The notes under the pieces were generated by a model, which was not told the DNA's origin, made no database searches, and saw only the letters and a list, made by a program, of their open reading frames with translations. A program made the translations under genes and the position numbers. From Acidobacteriota bacterium (GTDB lineage Bacteria > Acidobacteriota > Blastocatellia > UBA7656), in the NCBI GenBank assembly GCA_040754075.1, contig JBFMDH010000003.1:14307-78306 (forward strand): a DNA stretch of 64,000 nucleotides, read 5' to 3'. Positions 2,519 through 63,297 of this stretch are shown here, piece after piece. Positions within the stretch are counted from its first letter, which is position 1. Every line of letters begins with the position of its first letter.

Positions 2519-3625
2519 TTATGGTTGTTGCGCCAGGGCTTTAACGCGCTCGATGCTTTGTTTAATCGTCGGGTCGTTGGTCACGGAATAGGCTTTCTCG
2601 TAAATTCGCAAAGCCTGTTGATACTGTTTATCGCTTTCGTAGATGTAGGCGAGTTCAGACATTGCCGCCACCGAATCGGGAATTAATTGAATAGTGATTT
2701 CCAGCGCTTCCATCGCTTTGCGCGTCTTGCCGCTACGCGAAAGGGCGATGCCATAATAGAGCCATGCCTGCCCGTTATCGGTGTTTTCTTTCGCGAGTTT
2801 TTCGAGCGGGACAATCGCTTTCTCGAAATTTTTTGCGCCAAGATAGGCGCGCCCTAAAATGTTGGCGGTCTTTAGGTCATCACGCGCCGCCTGCAATTGT
2901 TCTGCGACGCTTGCCGCTTCATTCCACAAGGCATTTGCGGCACTCACGTTTGCGCCGAGCTTACGGGCTTTTCGCATTAAACTTTCGGCAAGCAATTCAA
3001 GCGCGTTGGCGTCTTCCGCATTCGCCTTTATCGCTTCACGAAAAGCCGGAATGGCGCGGTCATCATCCTCTCTCTTGAAATACATCAAGCCAAGCAAGTA
3101 GGCATTGGTTCCCGCGTCTTTGGCATTTTCATTTTTAGTTGCCGCAAGCAAAGGCAAGGCTTCGTCGTAACGTTCAAGATAATAATAAGCGCGACCGAGA
3201 GCCGCGCGCGCGCTCGGGTCAACCTCGCGTTTGGCTTTGGTATTTAAATCAATGTAGCGTTTGAGCGGCTCAAGGGCTTTATCGTATTCGGCGAGCAGAT
3301 AATGCGATAGCCCTATGGTGTAGAATGCACCGGCAATATCCGGGCTTTGCGGCGATTGCACTTCGAGGAGTTCGATGGCGCGCGCAAGCGGCATGCCGAC
3401 TCGTTTGTAACGTTTTAAATTGAATTCGCAAAGCCCGATGTAGTACCAGGCGCCGGCAAGGTCTGGGCGCTCTAAAACGAGGTCTTGAAATTCACTGAGC
3501 GCGGCGCGATAGTCGCCTTTTTTATAGTAGGCGACGCCTCTGTCCCAATCGGCTGCAAGCGTGGAATTGACCAGGAGTAGCGTCAGTAAAATGACCGCTG
3601 AAAAACTTTTCACGAAGGATTGCAT
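2519..3625 (-). CDS. Secreted tetratricopeptide-repeat (TPR) protein
   Basis: Signal peptide MQSFVKSFSAVILLTLLLVNSTLAA followed by repeated W/Y-x-x-G-x-x-x-Y-x-x-A-L TPR units (AWYYIGLCEF, AFYTIGLSHY, AYLLGLMYF, AWLYYGIALS). An alternative upstream ATG is at 3670. Confidence 0.7.
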   Translation of the reverse strand: MQSFVKSFSAVILLTLLLVNSTLAADWDRGVAYYKKGDYRAALSEFQDLVLERPDLAGAWYYIGLCEFNLKRYKRVGMPLARAIELLEVQSPQSPDIAGAFYTIGLSHYLLAEYDKALEPLKRYIDLNTKAKREVDPSARAALGRAYYYLERYDEALPLLAATKNENAKDAGTNAYLLGLMYFKREDDDRAIPAFREAIKANAEDANALELLAESLMRKARKLGANVSAANALWNEAASVAEQLQAARDDLKTANILGRAYLGAKNFEKAIVPLEKLAKENTDNGQAWLYYGIALSRSGKTRKAMEALEITIQLIPDSVAAMSELAYIYESDKQYQQALRIYEKAYSVTNDPTIKQSIERVKALAQQP

Positions 3626-40582: not shown

Positions 40583-40631
40583 TACGGCGCAGCATCAACG
40601 AAATTGATTGCCATATCAAAAAGGAAATCGC

Positions 40632-42383
40632 ATGGGAGCCATAGCACGAGAACTCATTAAACGGGCAGCACAGCACGAACCCACGCCGCAAGTGATGAGC
40701 GGCGCACGCATCGTTTGTGAAGCGTTGATGCGCGAAGGCGTTGACACAATCTTCGGTTATCCGGGTGGGGTGGTGTTGCCGATTTACGATGAATTGCTTA
40801 ACTACAAAGGCAAAATCCGTCACATCCTGGTGCGTCACGAACAGGGCGCAATGCACATGGCTGAAGGTTACGCGAAAGCCACAGGCAAAGTCGGATGTGT
40901 GTTGGTCACCTCAGGTCCAGGCGCAACCAATACAGTCACCGGCATTGCCAATGCTTTTTTGGATTCAACGCCGCTGGTGGTCATCACCGGTCAAGTGCCG
41001 ACGAAACTCATCGGCAACGATGCCTTTCAGGAAGTCGATACCGTGGGCATCACGCGCGCCTGCACCAAGTACAACTATCTGGTAAGCGATGCGCGCGATT
41101 TGCCGCACATCATCAAAGAAGCCTTTTTCATTGCCCAAACCGGGCGTCCGGGTCCCGTGTTGATTGATATTCCCAAAGACGTTTGCACCCAAACCGCGCC
41201 CTTCGTTTATGCCGATAACATCAACGTTGCGGGCTATGCGCCCCACCTGTTTGGTGAATCGGAATCCATCAAACGCGCCGCGCAAAAAATCGCGTCTGCC
41301 GAAAGACCGATTCTCTACATCGGTGGCGGCGTCATTCACGCCAATGCCTTCGATGAAATCGTCGAACTTGCTGAGCGGCTTTCTTTGCCGGTCACGCCAA
41401 CTTTGATGGGACTTGGTGGATTTCCGTCGGGGCATCCGCTCAATTTGGGAATGCTTGGCATGCATGGAATGTACTGGGCAAATATGGCGGTTTCCGAAGC
41501 CGATTTGCTGATTGCCGTCGGCGCGCGATTTGATGACCGGGTGACCGGCGCGCTCAATAAATTCGCGCCCCATGCCGAAATCATTCACGTCGATATTGAC
41601 CCCGGTTCAATCAGCAAAAATGTTCGCGCCACCATAGGCATCGTCGGCGACGCGAAAACCGTGGCGCAACAATTGATTGATGCGCTCAGCGAAGCAGAAT
41701 GCGCGACGAGTCGCGAACGCCTCAACAGTTGGTGGCAACAGATAAACGAATGGAAAACTTATGCGCCGCTCACTTTTGATGATACGGATGAGGTGATTAT
41801 GCCGCAGCGGTTGATTCGCGAATTGCACCGTTTAACCCAGGGCGACGCGATTATCGCAACCGATGTCGGACAGCATCAGATGTGGCTTGCGCAATATTAT
41901 CCGTTCAATTCGCCGCGCCAGAATTTGACGTCGGGGGGACTCGGCACAATGGGTTATGGATTCCCTGCGGCGCTCGGCGCGCAACTGGCTTTTCCGAATC
42001 GTCAGGTGATTGCTTTTGTCGGCGACGGCGGATTTCAAATGACCGCGCAGGAACTGGCGACCGCTGTGAAGTGCCGCGCCAATGTCAAAGTCATTGTCAT
42101 GAACAACGCGACGTTGGGAATGGTGCGCCAACTGCAAGATTTGTTCTATGACGGTAATTGCACGAATGTTGATTTAAGCGGCAATCCCGATTTCGTCAAA
42201 CTCGCGGAAGCTTACGGGGCAACCGGACTGAGAGCCACACGCCCCGAAGAGTTGAGCGAAGTGTTAGAACGCGGCTTGAATACGCCCGGCGTGGTGGTGA
42301 TGGATATTGCGGTTGCCGATAACCTGAATGTCTATCCGATGGTTCCCGCAGGCGCAGGGCTGACGGAGATGATTTTGAATTGA
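40632..42383 (+). CDS. ilvB: Acetolactate synthase large (catalytic) subunit
   Basis: AGGAAA SD. TPP-enzyme motifs ([19 protein letters not shown]...N...) and 584-aa length. Confidence 0.9.
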
Positions 42384-42387
42384 AGAA

Positions 42388-42521
42388 GTCTGGAGTCTGG
42401 AGTCGAGAGTCTGGAGTCTCAAATTTGTAGGGGTGAGAGTAGCTTCAAAAATAGAGAGGCAAAATCAACGTTCAAATTTGAAACTGCGGACTCCAGACTC
42501 CAGACTCTCGACTCCAGACAG
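42388..42521. repeat. Inverted arrays of tandem heptamers (GTCTGGA x4 / GACTCCA x4) flanking a ~65-nt spacer in the ilvB-ilvN gap
   Basis: The left arm is gtctgga gtctgga gtcgaga gtctgga gtctc. The right arm is gactcca gactcca gactctc gactcca gacagtc, its approximate reverse complement. Inner direct repeats caaatttg x2. Confidence 0.7.
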
Positions 42522-42525
42522 TCTT

Positions 42526-43050
42526 ATGAAACATACAATTTCAGTAATTCTTGAAGACCGCTTCGGAGATTTGCAACGCATCGTTGGCATGTTCAGCGCC
42601 AAGTGTTTGCCGATTGAATCCCTGAGCGTTTCACCGACCATGAATGGCACGCTCTCTTCGGCAACTATCGTCACCAGTGGCGAAGCAAAAGCCATCGAAC
42701 AGATTGTCAAATTGCTCAATCGTCAGGTGCGCGTATTGAGCGCGGCGGATGTGACGAATCTCGATTGTATCGAGCGCGAAATGGCATTTGTGAAAGTCAA
42801 AGCGGAAAACGGCGAAGCGCGACAAAAGGCTTTGAATCTGGTGTCGCTTTTCCATGCCAAAATCGTAGATGCGACCAACGAAGGTTTCATTGTCGAAGTC
42901 ATTGGTGACAGCAATACGGTTCGCGGTCTGGTGCATTCGCTGCAACCGTTCGGCGTGCACGAGGTCGTGCGCACCGGAACCGTAGCCATCGAGCGATTGA
43001 ACGAAGCGGGTGAGCAAGCGGCTGCTAATTGCCAGGTCGCGGCAGATTGA
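42526..43050 (+). CDS. ilvN: Acetolactate synthase small (regulatory) subunit
   Basis: ACT domain MKHTISVILEDRFGDLQRIVGMFS and a C-terminal AHAS small-subunit domain. Confidence 0.85.
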   Translation: MKHTISVILEDRFGDLQRIVGMFSAKCLPIESLSVSPTMNGTLSSATIVTSGEAKAIEQIVKLLNRQVRVLSAADVTNLDCIEREMAFVKVKAENGEARQKALNLVSLFHAKIVDATNEGFIVEVIGDSNTVRGLVHSLQPFGVHEVVRTGTVAIERLNEAGEQAAANCQVAAD

Positions 43051-44725: not shown

Positions 44726-44893
44726 TGGTGGTCGGTAGCCGGTCGTCGGCAGTCGGTTTTTAGCAATCAGTAGTTTGGTAAAACATTTGCTCTAGTTGTT
44801 GAGTTGAAATTCAATTACTAAACCAAATCCGTGCGAGCAACTGAATACGAAGAACCGATAACCGGCTACCGGCTACCGACTACTGACTACCAA
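44726..44893. repeat. Inverted arrays of tandem heptamers (GGTNGYC x4 / reverse complement x5) flanking a ~95-nt spacer in the cupin-ilvD gap
   Basis: Left arm: ggtggtc ggtagcc ggtcgtc ggcagtc ggt. Right arm: accgata accggct accggct accgact actgact acc. Confidence 0.65.
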
Positions 44894-44895
44894 CT

Positions 44896-46563
44896 ATGAG
44901 AAGTAATTTAATCAAACTCGGCGCAGAACGTGCACCGCATCGCAGCTTGCTCAAAGCTTGTGGTGTGACCGATGGCGATATGCCGAAACCGTTTATCGGC
45001 GTTTGCAATTCTTACATTGACATCATTCCCGGTCATCGCCATTTGCAGGAACTCGGCAAACTCGCAAAAGAAGCGGTGCGCGAAGCCGGTGGCATTCCAT
45101 TTGAATTCAATACCATCGGCGTTGATGATGGCATTGCGATGGGACACATCGGCATGAAGTACAGTTTGCCGTCGCGTGAAATCATCGCCGATTCGGTTGA
45201 AACGGTCATCGAAGCGCACCGGCTCGATGGCATGGTCTGCATTCCGAATTGCGACAAAATCGTGCCGGGAATGTTGATGGCGGCGATGCGCGTCAATGTG
45301 CCGGTGATTTTTGTAAGCGGCGGCGCGATGCGCGCGGGCAAGCTCTCAACCGGAAAAAGCGTCGATTTGATGCACGTCTTTGAAGGCGTCGGCGCAGTGC
45401 AAGCGGGAAAACTTTCTGCCGCAGAGCTTCAGGAAATCGAAGATGTCGCGTGTCCGACCTGCGGTTCATGTTCGGGAATGTTCACCGCCAATTCGATGAA
45501 CTGTTTGATGGAGGCGCTGGGGGTCGCGCTTCCCGGCAACGGTACGTTTTTAGCAGATTCAGTTGATCGCCGTGAACTGGTGAAACAAGCGGCAGCGCAG
45601 ATTATCGAACTGGTGAAAGCCGATTTCAAACCGAGCGATTACATCACGCTCGCGTCGTTTGATAATGCCTTTGCGCTCGATGTGGCGATGGGCGGTTCAA
45701 CCAACACCGTGTTGCACACGCTGGCGATTGCCCGTGAAGCGGGAATCGAATATCCGCTTGAACGTTTGAATGAAATCTCTCAGCGTGTGCCGACGATTTG
45801 CAAAGTCAGCCCGGCGCGTCCCGATGTGCACATCGAAGATGTTGAGAGAGTCGGCGGCATCAGCGCCATTTTGAAAGAACTCGCAAAACGCCAAGGGGCG
45901 CTGGAGTTAAATCAAAAGACCGTGACTATGCAAACGCTTGGCGAAAATATTCGCGAAGCCGCCGCGCCTGATGGCGATGTGATTCGCACCCTTGAAGAAC
46001 CTTTTTCGGAAACCGGCGCGCTGGCAACTTTATTCGGTAACCTCGCGCCCGAAGGCGCAGTCATCAAACGCGCCGCCGCCGATCTGGATTATTTTACCGG
46101 CACGGCGATGGTTTTCGATTCGATGGAAGAAGCCTGTTCTGCTATTTTAAGTGGACTCGTAAAAAAAGGTTCCGTGGTGGTGATTCGTTACGAAGGACCA
46201 CGCGGCGGTCCCGGTATGCAGGAGATGCTTGCGCCGACGGCAAACATCGTTGGCATGGGACTCGGGCGCGACGTGGCGCTGATCACCGATGGGCGGTTTT
46301 CGGGCGCGACCCGCGGCATCTGCATCGGGCATGTTTCACCGGAAGCCGCAGCCGGCGGGACGATTGCCGCGCTTAAAGACGGTGATGTGATTACCATCGA
46401 TTTGAAGAACAATCGTCTGGAAGTTGATTTGGATGCAAGCGAAATCGCCGCGCGCCTTGCCGCCTTGCCGCCATTTCAAACGCGCGTCAAGAGTTCGTAT
46501 TTGCGGCGCTATGCATCGCTTGTGACATCGGCGAACACCGGAGCGGTTCTCAGAAAAGTTTGA
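44896..46563 (+). CDS. ilvD: Dihydroxy-acid dehydratase
   Basis: ILVD/EDD family motifs ([36 protein letters not shown]). 555 aa. Confidence 0.9.
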
Positions 46564-46572
46564 AGAGTGCAG

Positions 46573-46653
46573 GGGTGAAAAGGTGAAGAGGTGAATGCGA
46601 AATTTAAATCGCTTTAAGCTCTGAATCCTGAGTCCTGAATCCTGAATCCTGAC
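46573..46653 (+). repeat. Tandem short repeats in the ilvD-leuB gap (GGTGAAR-A x3; CTGARTC heptamer x5)
   Basis: ggtgaaaa ggtgaaga ggtgaatg, then ctgaatc ctgagtc ctgaatc ctgaatc ctgact, immediately before the leuB ATG. Confidence 0.65.
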
Positions 46654-54125: not shown

Positions 54126-55718
54126 TTAATCATTCGTCTGTTTCAAAGCTTTTCGGTCAATCTTGCCGCGATCATTTTTCGGAAGGTCGGCGACAAATTC
54201 AATCCAGCGCGGGTATTTGTAAGGCGCCAGGCGACTCTTCACCATATCTTTTAAATCCGTTTCCAACTCTGCGTTTGCCGCGTGACCTTCGGCGACCACA
54301 ATAAAGGCTTTCGGTTTGATTAAGCCTTGTTCATCCATCGCGCCGATAACCGCAACTTCGGCGACTGCCGGGTGTTCGAGCAGACAATTTTCAATCTCTG
54401 TGGGCGAAGCAAACATGCCGCTCACCTTCAACATTTCATCGGTGCGCCCGGCATACCAGTAATAACCCTGTTCATCGACGCGAAACTGGTCGCCGGTCGT
54501 ACACCAATCGCCCGCAAAGGTCTCTTTGCTCTTGTCGTGCGCGTTCCAATAACAAAGCGCCGCCGAATCGCCTTTGATTCTCAGCGTCCCCATTTCGCCG
54601 GTCGGCACTTCGCGCCCTTCTGCGTCAACAATCTGCGCGGTGTAGCCTTCGACGATGCGACCGAGGCTGCCGAGTTTGACATCGCCCGGACGATTGGTGA
54701 TGTAGATATGAAACATTTCGGCAGAACCGATGCCGTCTAAAATCTCTACGCCGAAAGTCTCAATCCAACGCAAATAGAGTTCGGGCGGCAGGGCTTCACC
54801 CGCCGATAAACAAAACCTGAGACTCGACAAATCATAACGCTTCGCGCTGTTCGCTTGATGTTGCAGCATGGCGTTAATCATGGTCGGTACGCTGGTTAAA
54901 ATCGTCGGGCGATATTTTTCAATCATTGCGAACATGGCTTCGGCAGTTGAACGCTCGGCAAACAGCGCGGTTGCGCCGCCGACCGCAAATGGAAACAGTA
55001 GATTGGTTCCGGTCGCGTAACCGAAAAATAATTTCGGGACTGAAAGCGTGATGTCCGATTCGTTGATACCAAGCACCCGTTTGGCGTAGCACTCGGTGTT
55101 GTAAGGCATATCGTGTTGCAGATGAACGGCGGCTTTCGGTTGCCCGGTCGAACCTGATGTAAAAAGCCAGATAGCGAGGTCGTCGCGGGTCGTCGGCGCG
55201 GTTGCCAGTTCGCTGGAATGTTCGGCGATGGTTTGCTCAAACGGGTGAATATCACAGTAGCCGGCGATGCCTTCGATTTTACCTGTGACCTCTGTGTCAA
55301 CAACGAGAATGTGTCTGAGGAAACGCGAATGCGCGACCGCAGGTGTGAAGCGTTCCATCACGTCTTTGTGAACCACGGCGACTTTGGCGCGAGTGTATTC
55401 GAGATAATATTCGTAATCGCTGGTCGGCAAAATGGTGTTGACCATGGAAATCACCGCGCCGATTTTTGCAGTGGCAAACCACGCGGCGACGAATTCGATG
55501 GAATCCGGCAGCACAAGCAACACACGGTCTTCAATTTCAACACCAAACGAACGCAAGGCATTGCCGCAAGCGTTCGCCATTTGCTGCACGTCGCTGTAGG
55601 TGTATTGTTCATCGCGATAGTAAACGGCAACCTTATCGCCGCGCCCTTCGCTGATGTTGTGATCAAGATAATAAGTTGCAATGTTGAACGGTTCTGGAAA
55701 AGATATGGTCATAGTCAA
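54126..55718 (-). CDS. AMP-dependent acyl-CoA ligase (benzoate/aromatic acid-CoA ligase-like)
   Basis: AMP-binding motif LFTSGSTGQPKAAVH. Other adenylate-forming enzyme blocks (YGSAE-like GIGSAEM, GDxxxxDxxGxxxxxGRxDxxxKxxG region) are present. Confidence 0.75.
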   Translation of the reverse strand: MTMTISFPEPFNIATYYLDHNISEGRGDKVAVYYRDEQYTYSDVQQMANACGNALRSFGVEIEDRVLLVLPDSIEFVAAWFATAKIGAVISMVNTILPTSDYEYYLEYTRAKVAVVHKDVMERFTPAVAHSRFLRHILVVDTEVTGKIEGIAGYCDIHPFEQTIAEHSSELATAPTTRDDLAIWLFTSGSTGQPKAAVHLQHDMPYNTECYAKRVLGINESDITLSVPKLFFGYATGTNLLFPFAVGGATALFAERSTAEAMFAMIEKYRPTILTSVPTMINAMLQHQANSAKRYDLSSLRFCLSAGEALPPELYLRWIETFGVEILDGIGSAEMFHIYITNRPGDVKLGSLGRIVEGYTAQIVDAEGREVPTGEMGTLRIKGDSAALCYWNAHDKSKETFAGDWCTTGDQFRVDEQGYYWYAGRTDEMLKVSGMFASPTEIENCLLEHPAVAEVAVIGAMDEQGLIKPKAFIVVAEGHAANAELETDLKDMVKSRLAPYKYPRWIEFVADLPKNDRGKIDRKALKQTND

Positions 55719-55730
55719 TAATCCAAGTTT

Positions 55731-56172
55731 AGTGATGAGTAATGAGTGATGAGTTTCTCATTTAGAGTTCATCACGTCGCCTCTGAACAGATGCGCGTAA
55801 TCCTCCGATTATCTGTCCTAATTCTTTTGCTTTTGTCATCAATGAATCAAAAGCTGGTTTCTCTAAATATCCCGCGTCTAATGCAACATAAAGTTGCGAA
55901 CGGAATTCGGCACAGGACGCTTTGGCAATCGAAAGAAATTGATGAAACTCTGTAGCTTTTCCTCGCTCAAACCCTTCAGCGATGTTTGACATGATCGAGA
56001 CTGAGGCTCTGCGAATTTGATCTTTCAAGCCATAATCCCGCGCAAATTTTCCTTCCTCAGTAACTTTATAAATGAATGAGGTCAACGCCCGAGCTTTTTG
56101 CCAGGCGATAAAATCTTCAAATTGTTCTATCCTGTTTCCACTCATTACTCATTACTCATCACTCATTACTTT
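55731..56172. mobile_element. Cassette: four-helix-bundle gene flanked by inverted arrays of tandem heptamers (AGTRATG x3 / YACTCAT x4)
   Basis: Left arm: agtgatg agtaatg agtgatg ag (55731-55753). Right arm: cactcat tactcat tactcat cactcat tact (56139-56172). The arms are reverse complements of each other. The cassette sits exactly in the gap between two minus-strand genes. Confidence 0.55.
55762..56145 (-). CDS. Four-helix-bundle protein of the type found in 23S rRNA intervening sequences (TIGR02436-like)
   Basis: 127 aa, all-alpha, with conserved pattern ...[56 protein letters not shown]... typical of this family. Confidence 0.6.
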
Positions 56173-56173
56173 C

Positions 56174-56751
56174 TTATTGCCAGGTCGCGTAAAACTCACA
56201 AAACGCATCGCCGCGCCCGGTGCAACGGGTGTGCAGGACGCGCGGGTTTTCGGCTCCGCAAATTTCGATGGCGCGGCGAAAATATTCGGTGCCGCTGGCG
56301 CAATAACTCACGGGCGGCGGGGTGTCGTAATTGATTTTGAGCATGCCGCTATTCGGGCTTAACTCTTCATAAGTCGCGGTGCCGAAATCTTGATAGGAAC
56401 GATGAATGAGCGCCGTCTGTCTTAAAAAGGCGTGAATGTCGGCGTCGAGCAAACTGCTGTACGCGCCGGATAAATTCGAGGTCGCGGAAAATTCTCCGAG
56501 TTTTTGAAATATCGCTTCCGGGTTGCCGTCAAGCACATCGGCGATGGCATTATCTACGCGGTCAAGTAGAGCGAGGGTGTACCAATGATCGATTTCGATT
56601 TCGCTAAGCGCGGCGCGGTCGGCTTCGCTAAGTTGCTCCAGCACTGTAGTCCAAACGTCGAGTCCGTGATTCATCAAAACGTATAAAAATCGTGAGCGCA
56701 AAACTCCGCCTTTGATGTGCATATCAGCGTAAGCGGTTGATGGCGAATTCA
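56174..56751 (-). CDS. Hypothetical protein with C-terminal Cys motif (CASGTEY...CTGRGDAFCEF), possibly V4R/DUF2378-like
   Basis: GGAG SD before the ATG at 56749-56751. No confident family assignment. Confidence 0.35.
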
Positions 56752-56828
56752 TGTTGCATCTCCAATCGTGTAAAATCAGCGGCTCAGTCGGTCGAATTAT
56801 AGCCGAAACCAAAAGGTCAAGGTAGCAC

Positions 56829-61831: not shown

Positions 61832-63187
61832 ATGATCATCACCCGCAAACATCTGCCGCGACGAATATTTTTAAAAGGCGTGGGAACCGCGATTGCCTTG
61901 CCGATGCTCGATGCGATGACGCCTGCACTGGCGTTGCCCAATCAAATGAAAGCCCGGACGCCTGTTCGTTTAGCTTTTGTCTATGTGCCAAACGGCATCG
62001 TCATGAAAGACTGGACGCCGAAAACCGCTGGCAAAGATTTTGAGTTCACGCGAATTTTGAAACCACTTGAAGCCTTTCGCGAAGATTTGCTGGTGCTTTC
62101 GGGACTCGATGACCACAACGGCAATGCGCTTGGCGACGGTCCGGGCGACCACGCGCGCGCCGGTGCAGCGATTTTAACCGGTGTGCATTGCAAAAAAACT
62201 GCGGGCGCAGATATTCATAACGGCATTTCTGCCGACCAGGTCGCGGCAAAAGCCATAGGCGCAAAGACTCGTCTGGCATCAATGGAACTCGGTTGCGAAG
62301 ATTCGCGCACTGTGGGCAATTGCGATTCGGGGTACAGTTGCGCTTATACCAACAGCATTTCCTGGCGCAGCGAAACCACGCCGATGCCGCCCGAAGTCAA
62401 TCCGCGCAACGCATTTGAACGATTGTTCGGGACAAATGATTACAGCCTCAATGCCGAAACCCGCGCCAGACGGGCAGAATATCGTAAGAGCATCCTTGAT
62501 TTGGTTCGCGAAGATTCCGAGAAACTGAGCAAGAGTCTAGGGCAGGCAGACCGTCGCAAAATTGACGAATACCTCACCGCAGTGAGAGAAGTTGAAAAGC
62601 AAATCGCTGCTGCCGAAAACGATAATGCACAGGTCAATCCGACGATTGAAAAACCCGCAGGCATTCCCGCGACGTTTCGTGAATATGCGAAAATCATGTT
62701 TGACCTGCAACTGGTGGCTTTTCAATCCGACATCACGCGCATCTCTACGTTGATGCTCGGTCGTGAAGGCAGCATGCGCGTCTATCCCGAAATTGAAGTC
62801 CCAGACCCACATCATCCGCTTACCCATCATCGCAATAATGCCGAGTGGATCGAGCGAGTCACGAAAATCAATTGTCTGCACACAGAATTATTCGCCTATT
62901 TTCTGCAACGGCTCAAATCCACAAAAGAGGGCGAAGGCACATTGCTCGACCATTCGATGATTGTTTATGTCAGTGGTCTAAGCGATGGCAATCGACACAC
63001 GCACGAAGAGTTGCCGGTGATTTTGGCGGGACGCGGCGATGGCAAACTTCAACCCGGATGCCATATGGTTTACAAAAGAGGCACGCCAATTACCAATTTG
63101 TATATGAATTTGCTTGAACACTTGGGCGTTCAAGTTGAGCGCCTTGGCGACAGCACCGGTAAACTCGCGCAGCTTACGGAAGGGTAA
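61832..63187 (+). CDS. DUF1552-family protein with twin-arginine signal (partner of DUF1592)
   Basis: GAGGAG SD. Tat motif RRIFLKGVGTAIALPMLDAM. 451 aa. Confidence 0.6.
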   Translation: MIITRKHLPRRIFLKGVGTAIALPMLDAMTPALALPNQMKARTPVRLAFVYVPNGIVMKDWTPKTAGKDFEFTRILKPLEAFREDLLVLSGLDDHNGNALGDGPGDHARAGAAILTGVHCKKTAGADIHNGISADQVAAKAIGAKTRLASMELGCEDSRTVGNCDSGYSCAYTNSISWRSETTPMPPEVNPRNAFERLFGTNDYSLNAETRARRAEYRKSILDLVREDSEKLSKSLGQADRRKIDEYLTAVREVEKQIAAAENDNAQVNPTIEKPAGIPATFREYAKIMFDLQLVAFQSDITRISTLMLGREGSMRVYPEIEVPDPHHPLTHHRNNAEWIERVTKINCLHTELFAYFLQRLKSTKEGEGTLLDHSMIVYVSGLSDGNRHTHEELPVILAGRGDGKLQPGCHMVYKRGTPITNLYMNLLEHLGVQVERLGDSTGKLAQLTEG

Positions 63188-63297
63188 AGATTTTTACATC
63201 GCTTTAATTTCTAAAATTTTTTCCTGCGGCTGTGCTGCTTTAAAGATTTTTACATCGCTTTAATTTCTAAAATTTTCTTCTGCGGCTGTGTTGCTTT
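63185..63297 (+). repeat. Tandem duplication of a ~57-bp unit beginning at the DUF1552 stop codon
   Basis: taaagatttttacatcgctttaatttctaaaatttt(t)tcctgcggctgtgctgcttt occurs twice with three mismatches/indels. Followed by hairpins CGGGGA...TCCCCG and GGGGC-tac-GCCCC. Confidence 0.75.

Follow-up and report, generated by a model that had tools for sequence, protein, structure and literature searches.

A PF05635 four-helix-bundle gene between inverted heptamer arrays in an operon spacer of an Acidobacteriota bacterium, and the recurrence of this layout across bacterial phyla

The closest described relatives of the element considered here are the intervening sequences (IVSs) of rRNA. In Coxiella burnetii, helix 45 of 23S rRNA contains an IVS of 428 nt with the S23p open reading frame (ORF) in its loop, a 28-bp terminal stem in which RNase III cuts have been mapped, and two or three tandem GACAGAT heptamers before the ATG, the number of which varies among strains (Warrier et al. 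2016, PMC4990558); IVS excision by RNase III is known for Coxiella, Salmonella, and Leptospira (PMC4990558). We analyzed a stretch of 64,000 nucleotides from an Acidobacteriota bacterium (contig JBFMDH010000003.1; this whole 64-kb stretch is called the window below), in which a gene of the same protein family lies between inverted heptamer arrays on the minus strand (positions 55731–56170), in a spacer between two protein-coding genes. On balance, we regard this cassette as probably an IVS-type stem-loop unit in mRNA, that is, a promoter-less PF05635 gene enclosed by inverted heptamer arrays and carried in sense orientation between co-transcribed genes.

The element also resembles the intergenic heptamer repeats. 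Such arrays lie near start codons, often as convergent pairs, in Xanthomonas (GGGAATC) and Nostoc, and heptamer repeats are over-represented in some bacteria (PMC4692102); others, among them TAACTGA, occur in Beggiatoaceae, Cyanobacteria, and Bacteroidetes (PMC4679880). The 186 GGGAATC arrays of Xanthomonas campestris include 70 convergent pairs and mostly have 4 units each (PMC4692102). Horizontal spread of the arrays is suspected, with "no mechanism evident", and the roles proposed for them are the formation of G-quadruplexes or binding by S1, Csp, or CsrA (PMC4692102, PMC4679880). The published repeats (STRR of Calothrix and Nostoc, GGGAATC, and TAACTGA) and the arrays described here are alike in their period of 7, their number of units (about 4), their position in spacers near start codons, their frequent occurrence as inverted pairs, their variable length, their patchy distribution across phyla, and the fact that they are transcribed (PMC4692102, PMC4679880). 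The cassette arrays consist of at least three tandem 7-nt units, lie in a spacer near a start codon, and vary in length between samples, as STRR-like repeats do. The published repeats are tied to no gene family, whereas the arrays in the window enclose a PF05635 gene.

The cassette gene (55762–56145, minus strand) encodes a four-helix-bundle protein of 127 aa. A reading of the window made from the sequence only had assigned this ORF to the family first found in 23S IVSs, which is borne out by the matches to PF05635 in Pfam (E 6.5e-36, 123 bits vs. a cut-off of 33.8, residues 10–114, 106-position model) and to TIGR02436 in NCBIfam (116 bits vs. a cut-off of 24). On the coding strand, the 5′ stem arm (56140–56170) is purine-rich, (AGTAATG/AGTGATG) × 4.4, and the 3′ stem arm (55731–55754) is pyrimidine-rich, (CTCATCA/CTCATTA) × 3.4; both were detected by Tandem Repeats Finder, by the inverted-repeat search, and by folding. 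Tandem Repeats Finder reports a period of 7 in both cases, with 4.4 copies of the unit ACTCATT at 56140–56170 and 3.4 copies of the unit AGTGATG at 55731–55754. The two arrays are inverted complements over 24 nt at 96% (one mismatch) or, in a unit-shifted register, over 17 nt at 100%; the inversion at the heptamer level noticed by the sequence-only reading therefore stands, while its word "perfect" was a slight overstatement. The pattern AGTRATGAGTRATG has five matches in the window, all within the two cassette arrays, against 0.02 expected from shuffled sequences. Folding of the sense RNA pairs both arms in the minimum-free-energy and centroid structures (z −4.6).

The ORF list and inspection of the sequence confirm that the cassette ORF lies between two genes on the same minus strand, filling the spacer between them, and that its start codon is inside the repeat: the ATG (56145–56143) belongs to the last array unit and is the last among several out-of-frame ATGs there. 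The stop codon (55764–55762) is 7 nt from the 3′ array. A mini-palindrome, ATGAG-AAA-CTCAT (55749–55761, minus strand, read from the sequence), directly follows the stop, so that one purine-type unit precedes the pyrimidine-type 3′ arm; this order places the gene inside the 5′ arm and not at the center of the loop. A like order after the stop, namely purine-type units, loop, and 3′ arm, is present at two other loci of the family (L004 and L010), and 10 of 49 loci have a purine-rich array as the first one downstream. A promoter and terminator scan at the cassette gave nothing above shuffled sequences. No Rfam family, rRNA included, was detected in the 64-kb window, and the element stands between two protein-coding genes, not in an rRNA helix.

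The topology is that of a true rRNA IVS such as the one of Coxiella (an S23p ORF enclosed by the loop, a stem of 28 bp, and heptamers ahead of the ATG; PMC4990558), as had been proposed for this locus. In the S23p-ORF IVSs (Coxiella, also Leptospira), a protein of the same family is encoded in the loop in sense to the host transcript; the cassette shares with the Coxiella element a length of ~430–440 nt, an inverted-repeat stem of ~24–28 bp, heptamers directly before the ATG, and the lack of a strong Shine–Dalgarno sequence. Like an IVS, it has an enclosing terminal inverted-repeat stem and is present sporadically among relatives. It differs in that the host is a protein-coding operon spacer instead of a 23S or 16S rRNA helix, both arms are made wholly of heptamer arrays, and processing is proposed by analogy; the Coxiella ORF is decaying and apparently untranslated, whereas the cassette ORF is intact and conserved.

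As one more member of a very large family, the single locus is of value because it exposes a general architecture tying IVS proteins to heptamers. We retrieved 80 loci of relatives with 57–79% identity to the cassette protein, originating from Acidobacteriota, Nostoc, Chloroflexota, Planctomycetota, Nitrospirota, delta-, beta-, and gammaproteobacteria, Deinococcota, and others; 78 genes were evaluable. Other copies of the family proved to be flanked by arrays as well, a point that the sequence-only reading had raised: a period-7 array is found within ~120 nt upstream of 53 of the 78 genes, downstream of 54, and on both sides of 42. Complementary flanks that could form stems are present at 57 of the 78 genes, with 1609 of 1763 stem positions paired (91%). 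The period is specific, with 221 arrays of period 7 in the family loci against 3–17 for periods 5, 6, 8, 9, and 10. Next to the genes there are 2.6 arrays per kb; the remainder of the same loci has 0.25 per kb, and control loci selected irrespective of the PF05635 family have 0.056 per kb, which corresponds to an enrichment beside PF05635 genes of ~10-fold and ~47-fold, respectively.

The repeat unit itself varies between loci (more than 20 units), and yet the two arms carry an identical unit in 24 of 35 loci, whereas 5000 permutations gave 4.1 such loci on average and never more than 11; this agreement is a covariation of the arms at large scale. Complementarity of the arms is kept although the unit is replaced from one locus to the next. 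The median arm length is 30–31 nt (median 4.4 units). Several units are common to unrelated phyla (AGTGCTG at 15 loci, AGGACTG at 11, and AGTGATG/AGTAATG at 9), and the gene and the arm type have spread across phyla together. The layout recurs in at least eight bacterial phyla and on plasmids and is general for the family. Distant members (29–47% identity) on annotated plasmids of Nostoc, Calothrix, Riemerella, Stanieria, Picosynechococcus, Azospirillum, and Geminocystis lie between inverted short-period arrays of other sequences; the one on the Picosynechococcus plasmid stands between cmr2 and cmr3. In two plasmid loci (L177, Stanieria; L178, Nostoc PCC 7120), a separate sequence distinct from the CTGCCYT heptamer arms was noticed ~40 nt before the PF05635 ATG. 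Essentially no other passenger genes were found in purine-first heptamer hairpins within this PF05635-biased set of loci.

Comparison of orthologous spacers shows that the cassette is an insertion between two host genes. The order S58 peptidase, gene for a 192-aa protein, CoA ligase is kept on five related contigs (L081–L085); six orthologous spacers were usable in all, because most metagenome orthologues of the 192-aa gene have no CoA ligase neighbor. Spacers without the gene, as expected for an insert at this site, were found among them: in L082 and L083 the spacer is 72 nt long, has no arrays, and gives an unstructured fold (z 0.17), and in L084 it is 146 nt long and holds degenerate AGTAATG-type inverted arrays around a ~60-nt loop but no gene (z −3.5). 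The L085 spacer contains an unrelated 86-aa ORF, and in that of L081 (4580–4848) a GC-rich palindromic motif occurs several times (gtcgcgtagcgacg, gtcgtcgcgtcagcgacg, cgccgctgacgcgaca), an intergenic repeat of another kind. The closest homologues of the cassette protein (74–79% identity; Pyrinomonadaceae, Chloracidobacterium) sit in unrelated gene contexts.

Neighboring genes whose coding strand could be determined run in the same direction as the cassette gene (36:0 upstream, 36:4 downstream), which, together with the lack of promoter and terminator signals, fits a promoter-less passenger of host operons. It should be noted that the order "purine arm first" (45 of 48) was considered as evidence of gene polarity and rejected, since an inverted repeat reads alike on both strands and is therefore uninformative on gene orientation, for which only the direction of the neighboring genes counts. 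Metagenome samples whose cassette protein is identical have arrays that are one or two 7-nt units longer or shorter and show C/T changes inside units; the arms therefore evolve as microsatellites, faster than their surroundings, with 7-nt units being gained and lost.

Turnover is also seen at two neighboring spacers of one polysaccharide operon in related Pyrinomonadaceae, whose operon decarboxylase is 90–95% identical between genomes. These spacers hold orthologous PF05635 cassettes whose arrays differ in length and unit sequence or, in other genomes, an unrelated PF05635 lineage, an arrays-only hairpin, a normal gene, or a GxxExxY gene; the PF05635 lineages that alternate in the operon are 27–96% identical. 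In the loci L159–L166, two PF05635 cassettes that are 53% identical occupy consecutive spacers (1041–1442 and 2501–2905). The second spacer of L172 has an unrelated PF05635 lineage (~27–35% identity) with CGAAATC-type arrays. At 3440–3625 of L169, where sister genomes have a PF05635 cassette, there is an arrays-only hairpin of opposite polarity, in which the pyrimidine arm comes first: (TTTCTCA)n, ~85 nt, (TGAGAAA)n. In L167, a GxxExxY gene (TIGR04256/PF13366, PD-(D/E)XK fold; 2003–2443) takes the place of the PF05635 cassette carried by sister genomes and lies between perfect 27-nt inverted arms (1975–2003 and 2455–2482) composed of period-8 repeats with the core CACAGAG. Side observations on the GxxExxY family are that CACAGAG/CTCTGTG arms also surround such genes on Bernardetia and Bacteroides plasmids, that a GxxExxY gene lies between fabD and fabG in Sphingomonas, and that the flanks of those in Fusobacteria and Prevotella are direct, not inverted, repeats.

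Gene-less copies, consisting of arrays only, occupy the same kinds of sites. Counting arrays of at least 3 units, the window has 7 with period 7, 3 with period 6, and none with period 5, 8, 9, 10, or 11. A gene-less hairpin is found at 42387–42519, (AGTCTGG) × 4.7, a 69-nt loop, and (CCAGACT) × 4.4 (RNA fold −70.7 kcal/mol, z −7.3). It fills its spacer, beginning 3 nt past the stop of ORF 40608–42383 and ending 7 nt before the ATG at 42527 of a gene with an acetolactate-synthase small-subunit-like start, MKHTISVILEDRFG. Its geometry is like that of the cassette, and its unit is different. Two single pyrimidine-type arrays, (ACCGGCT) × 5.1 at 44861–44896 and (CTGAATC) × 4.6 at 46621–46652, run right up to the start codon of the gene that follows (ATG at 44896 and 46655, respectively), in neither case with a Shine–Dalgarno sequence; each looks like a 3′ hairpin arm that has no partner. 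The link between the cassette and these gene-less arrays that was drawn from the sequence holds: arrays of the same type exist at the same spacer in L084, and in other genomes empty hairpins carry the same unit as the cassette of that genome, but the units of the ilv spacers (AGTCTGG, ACCGGCT, and CTGAATC) differ from that of the cassette, so these arrays are linked to it by kind, not by sequence.

On this basis, the following mechanism can be proposed for an IVS-type unit. The arms would pair on the polycistronic transcript to form a stem of ~24–30 bp, which would bring the upstream stop and the downstream start codons to ~25 nt from each other at its base. The stem may be a substrate of RNase III, and processing of the cassette mRNA stem by this enzyme is suggested by analogy with the Coxiella 23S IVS. 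Once cut, the insert could be excised or insulated at the RNA level, and would then either be harmless or modulate the two flanking cistrons; such excision or insulation would make cassettes tolerable inside operons and rRNA helices alike. The arrays would travel with the gene, or be specified by it, rather than by the host site.

Several observations weigh against this interpretation. The 80 loci were picked by similarity to the cassette gene, which introduces an ascertainment bias, and about a quarter of the homologues are without any array under the thresholds used. The distance between array and gene varies from −6 to 86 nt upstream and from −10 to 69 nt downstream, so the cassette unit is not rigid. 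Among the mismatches of the 57 stems, A·C (42) and G·U (38) are about equally frequent on the sense strand, with no wobble signature of sense RNA; it may therefore be at the DNA level, or through the generating mechanism, that complementarity is maintained, and not through selection on the sense RNA. There is no sign of recent transposition among identical proteins, which occur on 7 and 17 contigs, all at one same locus. No target-site duplication was seen when the window was compared with L084 and L082, whose proteins are only ~70% identical to those of the window, so that the junctions are not alignable base by base. Pairing and cleavage in this organism are, finally, steps that we infer.

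The properties of the protein bear on the main alternative explanation. The cassette protein carries R-x3-S-x3-N-x2-E, which fits the motif GxxRxxxSxxxNxxE conserved in XCC0516 homologues (PMC3936711), and its only relative in the PDB is XCC0516 of X. campestris (2gsc, E 5e-15). The family is very large: a single search gave more than 7,700 close relatives. A passage in PMC4990558, citing Lin 2006, describes the family protein as a toroidal homopentamer. The heptamer arrays could accordingly be imagined as binding sites of PF05635 pentamers, with the gene lying between targets of its own product (autoregulation or a relationship like that of RAYT and REPIN) and with the gene-less arrays as additional targets at which the protein would modulate translation or processing at operon junctions. 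We consider this reading possible, if rather unlikely. It agrees with the unit counts, which peak at 4 (3 units in 30 arrays, 4 in 39, 5 in 19, and 6 in 4) and drop sharply after 5, and which are mostly 4 in Xanthomonas too, with arrays that abut start codons, and with the unidentified binding partner proposed in published studies of heptamer arrays (PMC4679880; bioRxiv 10.1101/2022.06.06.494920). In addition, different protein subfamilies have different units, and distant arrays within a locus match the unit of the cassette in 39% of cases vs. 18% by chance (p 5e-4). In X. campestris, with its 186 GGGAATC arrays, one array lies between bccP (XCC0517) and XCC0516 and overlaps the start codon of XCC0516 (repeat #15, 622956–622983, in supplement file 2 of PMC4692102, where it is listed as "conserved" and no link is drawn).

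Against binding, the unit class is only weakly coupled to the protein in the close clade, where identity is 63.9% within and 62.0% between classes, a significant but tiny difference driven by orthologues. The proteins of L022 and L029 are 92% identical and have different unit mixes, and in the 64-kb window a single PF05635 gene stands against four unrelated unit types. Co-inheritance would account equally well for the co-variation of unit and subfamily.

A broader proposal builds on the binding reading. The STRR arrays of Nostoc and Calothrix, the GGGAATC arrays of Xanthomonas, and the TAACTGA arrays of Beggiatoaceae and Bacteroidetes could all be the footprint of one system, with PF05635 pentamers as the trans-acting partner; we put this forward as speculation and hold it to be unlikely. 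The pentamer would recognize, and perhaps propagate, arrays of ~4–5 heptamers, one unit per subunit; the gene would ride in a hairpin of its own target repeats, as RAYT does between REP sequences; gene-less hairpins at operon junctions would be non-autonomous derivatives; and the GxxExxY family, with its PD-(D/E)XK fold, would use the same vehicle with its own core CACAGAG. REP hairpins act on mRNA stability. The REP/REPIN and RAYT system is similar in having dispersed hairpin repeats in operon spacers and a gene flanked by inverted copies of the repeat. The differences are that RAYT is a Y1 transposase (IS200/IS605 type), while PF05635 is a four-helix bundle without known catalytic activity and the cassette gene matches no Y1 transposase family; that REP is a fixed palindrome of ~35 nt, while the cassette arms are tandem heptamer arrays; and that PF05635 genes, unlike RAYT, are multi-copy in many genomes. 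If this broader proposal were true, the two gene families would together make up a class, not recognized before, of mini-cassettes with hairpin boundaries, whose niches are transcribed spacers and rRNA helices.

The cassette could also be a DNA-level element whose arrays serve as terminal inverted repeats or cruciform ends for a recombinase or transposase acting in trans, the arrays-only copies being MITE-like and the RNA structure incidental. The inverted termini, the insertion polymorphism, the gene-less derivatives at the same site, the symmetric mismatch spectrum, the spread across phyla at 60–80% protein identity, and the unrelated GxxExxY family in analogous inverted-array cassettes that can occupy the same spacer are all compatible with this. 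Arrays-only hairpins relate to gene cassettes as MITEs do to autonomous elements, and L084 has one at the same site. We nevertheless find such an origin improbable: in contrast to MITEs, the ends are not fixed, and no target-site duplication was seen in the comparison with L084 and L082, whose junctions are not alignable base by base; there is no transposase in or beside the cassettes; the arms change by unit slippage between near-identical strains; no identical copies were found at different sites; and strict co-orientation with host transcription is unexpected for a simple DNA transposon.

Chance has next to no likelihood as an explanation. The window does have other heptamer arrays in operon spacers, and heptamers are over-represented in some bacteria (PMC4692102), so that a small gene might come to lie between two microsatellites of a genome rich in them; this is contradicted by the permutation and density controls, since both here and at 24 of 35 other loci the two arms share one unit in inverted form, where ~4 such loci would be expected by chance, arrays are enriched ~10-fold and ~47-fold beside the gene family, and the pattern extends over at least eight phyla and plasmids.

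Virtually negligible, lastly, is the idea that the gene encodes the Avd accessory protein of a diversity-generating retroelement: Avd is a pentameric four-helix bundle that binds nucleic acid and reverse transcriptase, and its fold is homologous to that of the cassette protein, which at E up to 10 matches only PF05635 and bAvd in Pfam, but the sequence match to bAvd is distant and weak (PF22296, E 1.3e-4), the Avd equivalog NF033474 scores 19 bits vs. a cut-off of 80, no reverse transcriptase or template repeat is adjacent, and the gene context is another one, consisting of the CoA ligase, the 192-aa protein, the S58 peptidase, and a Dus-like enzyme.

The general PF05635–heptamer architecture has apparently not been described: our full-text literature search found no paper that states the general link, an absence that is not proof, as most subscription journals are outside its coverage. 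Three loose ends may turn out to be one phenomenon, namely the origin and mobility of rRNA IVSs, the function of the "four helix bundle protein", and the meaning of intergenic heptamers. If they do, this would explain why PF05635 genes, which have been noted within cas operons (PMC3936711), occur in operons of the cas, acc, fab, and polysaccharide kinds and leave these intact, and in annotation, such genes and their hairpins should be flagged as inserts and not as operon members.

The host genes on either side of the cassette are both encoded on the minus strand. The upstream gene (56174–56752, from the ORF list) encodes the 192-aa protein, which is conserved and has no assigned function; it has 50 homologues, one of them (P0001) 100% identical and from an Acidobacteriota metagenome-assembled genome (MAG), and it gives sub-threshold matches only, to HNOB and TIGR02265. 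Its TAA stop (56176–56174) is 3 nt ahead of the 5′ arm. The downstream gene (54126–55712) encodes an AMP-binding acyl-CoA ligase (Pfam AMP-binding, E 7.5e-77), and the 3′ arm ends 18 nt ahead of its ATG at 55712. The ORF tool starts this gene at TTG 55718; the orthologues all begin with MTISFPE at the position of ATG 55712, which makes the latter the likelier start.

A defense-system search gave no match for the cassette, and a pattern scan of viral contigs found no close relative of its protein. Four PF05635 paralogues, one of them partial, are clustered within 3.4 kb of a deltaproteobacterial MAG (L038, 140–3387), with 38–64% identity to the query. Near the end of the window, at 63185–63297, an AT-rich 56-nt unit is repeated twice in tandem with 94% identity (Tandem Repeats Finder score 205).

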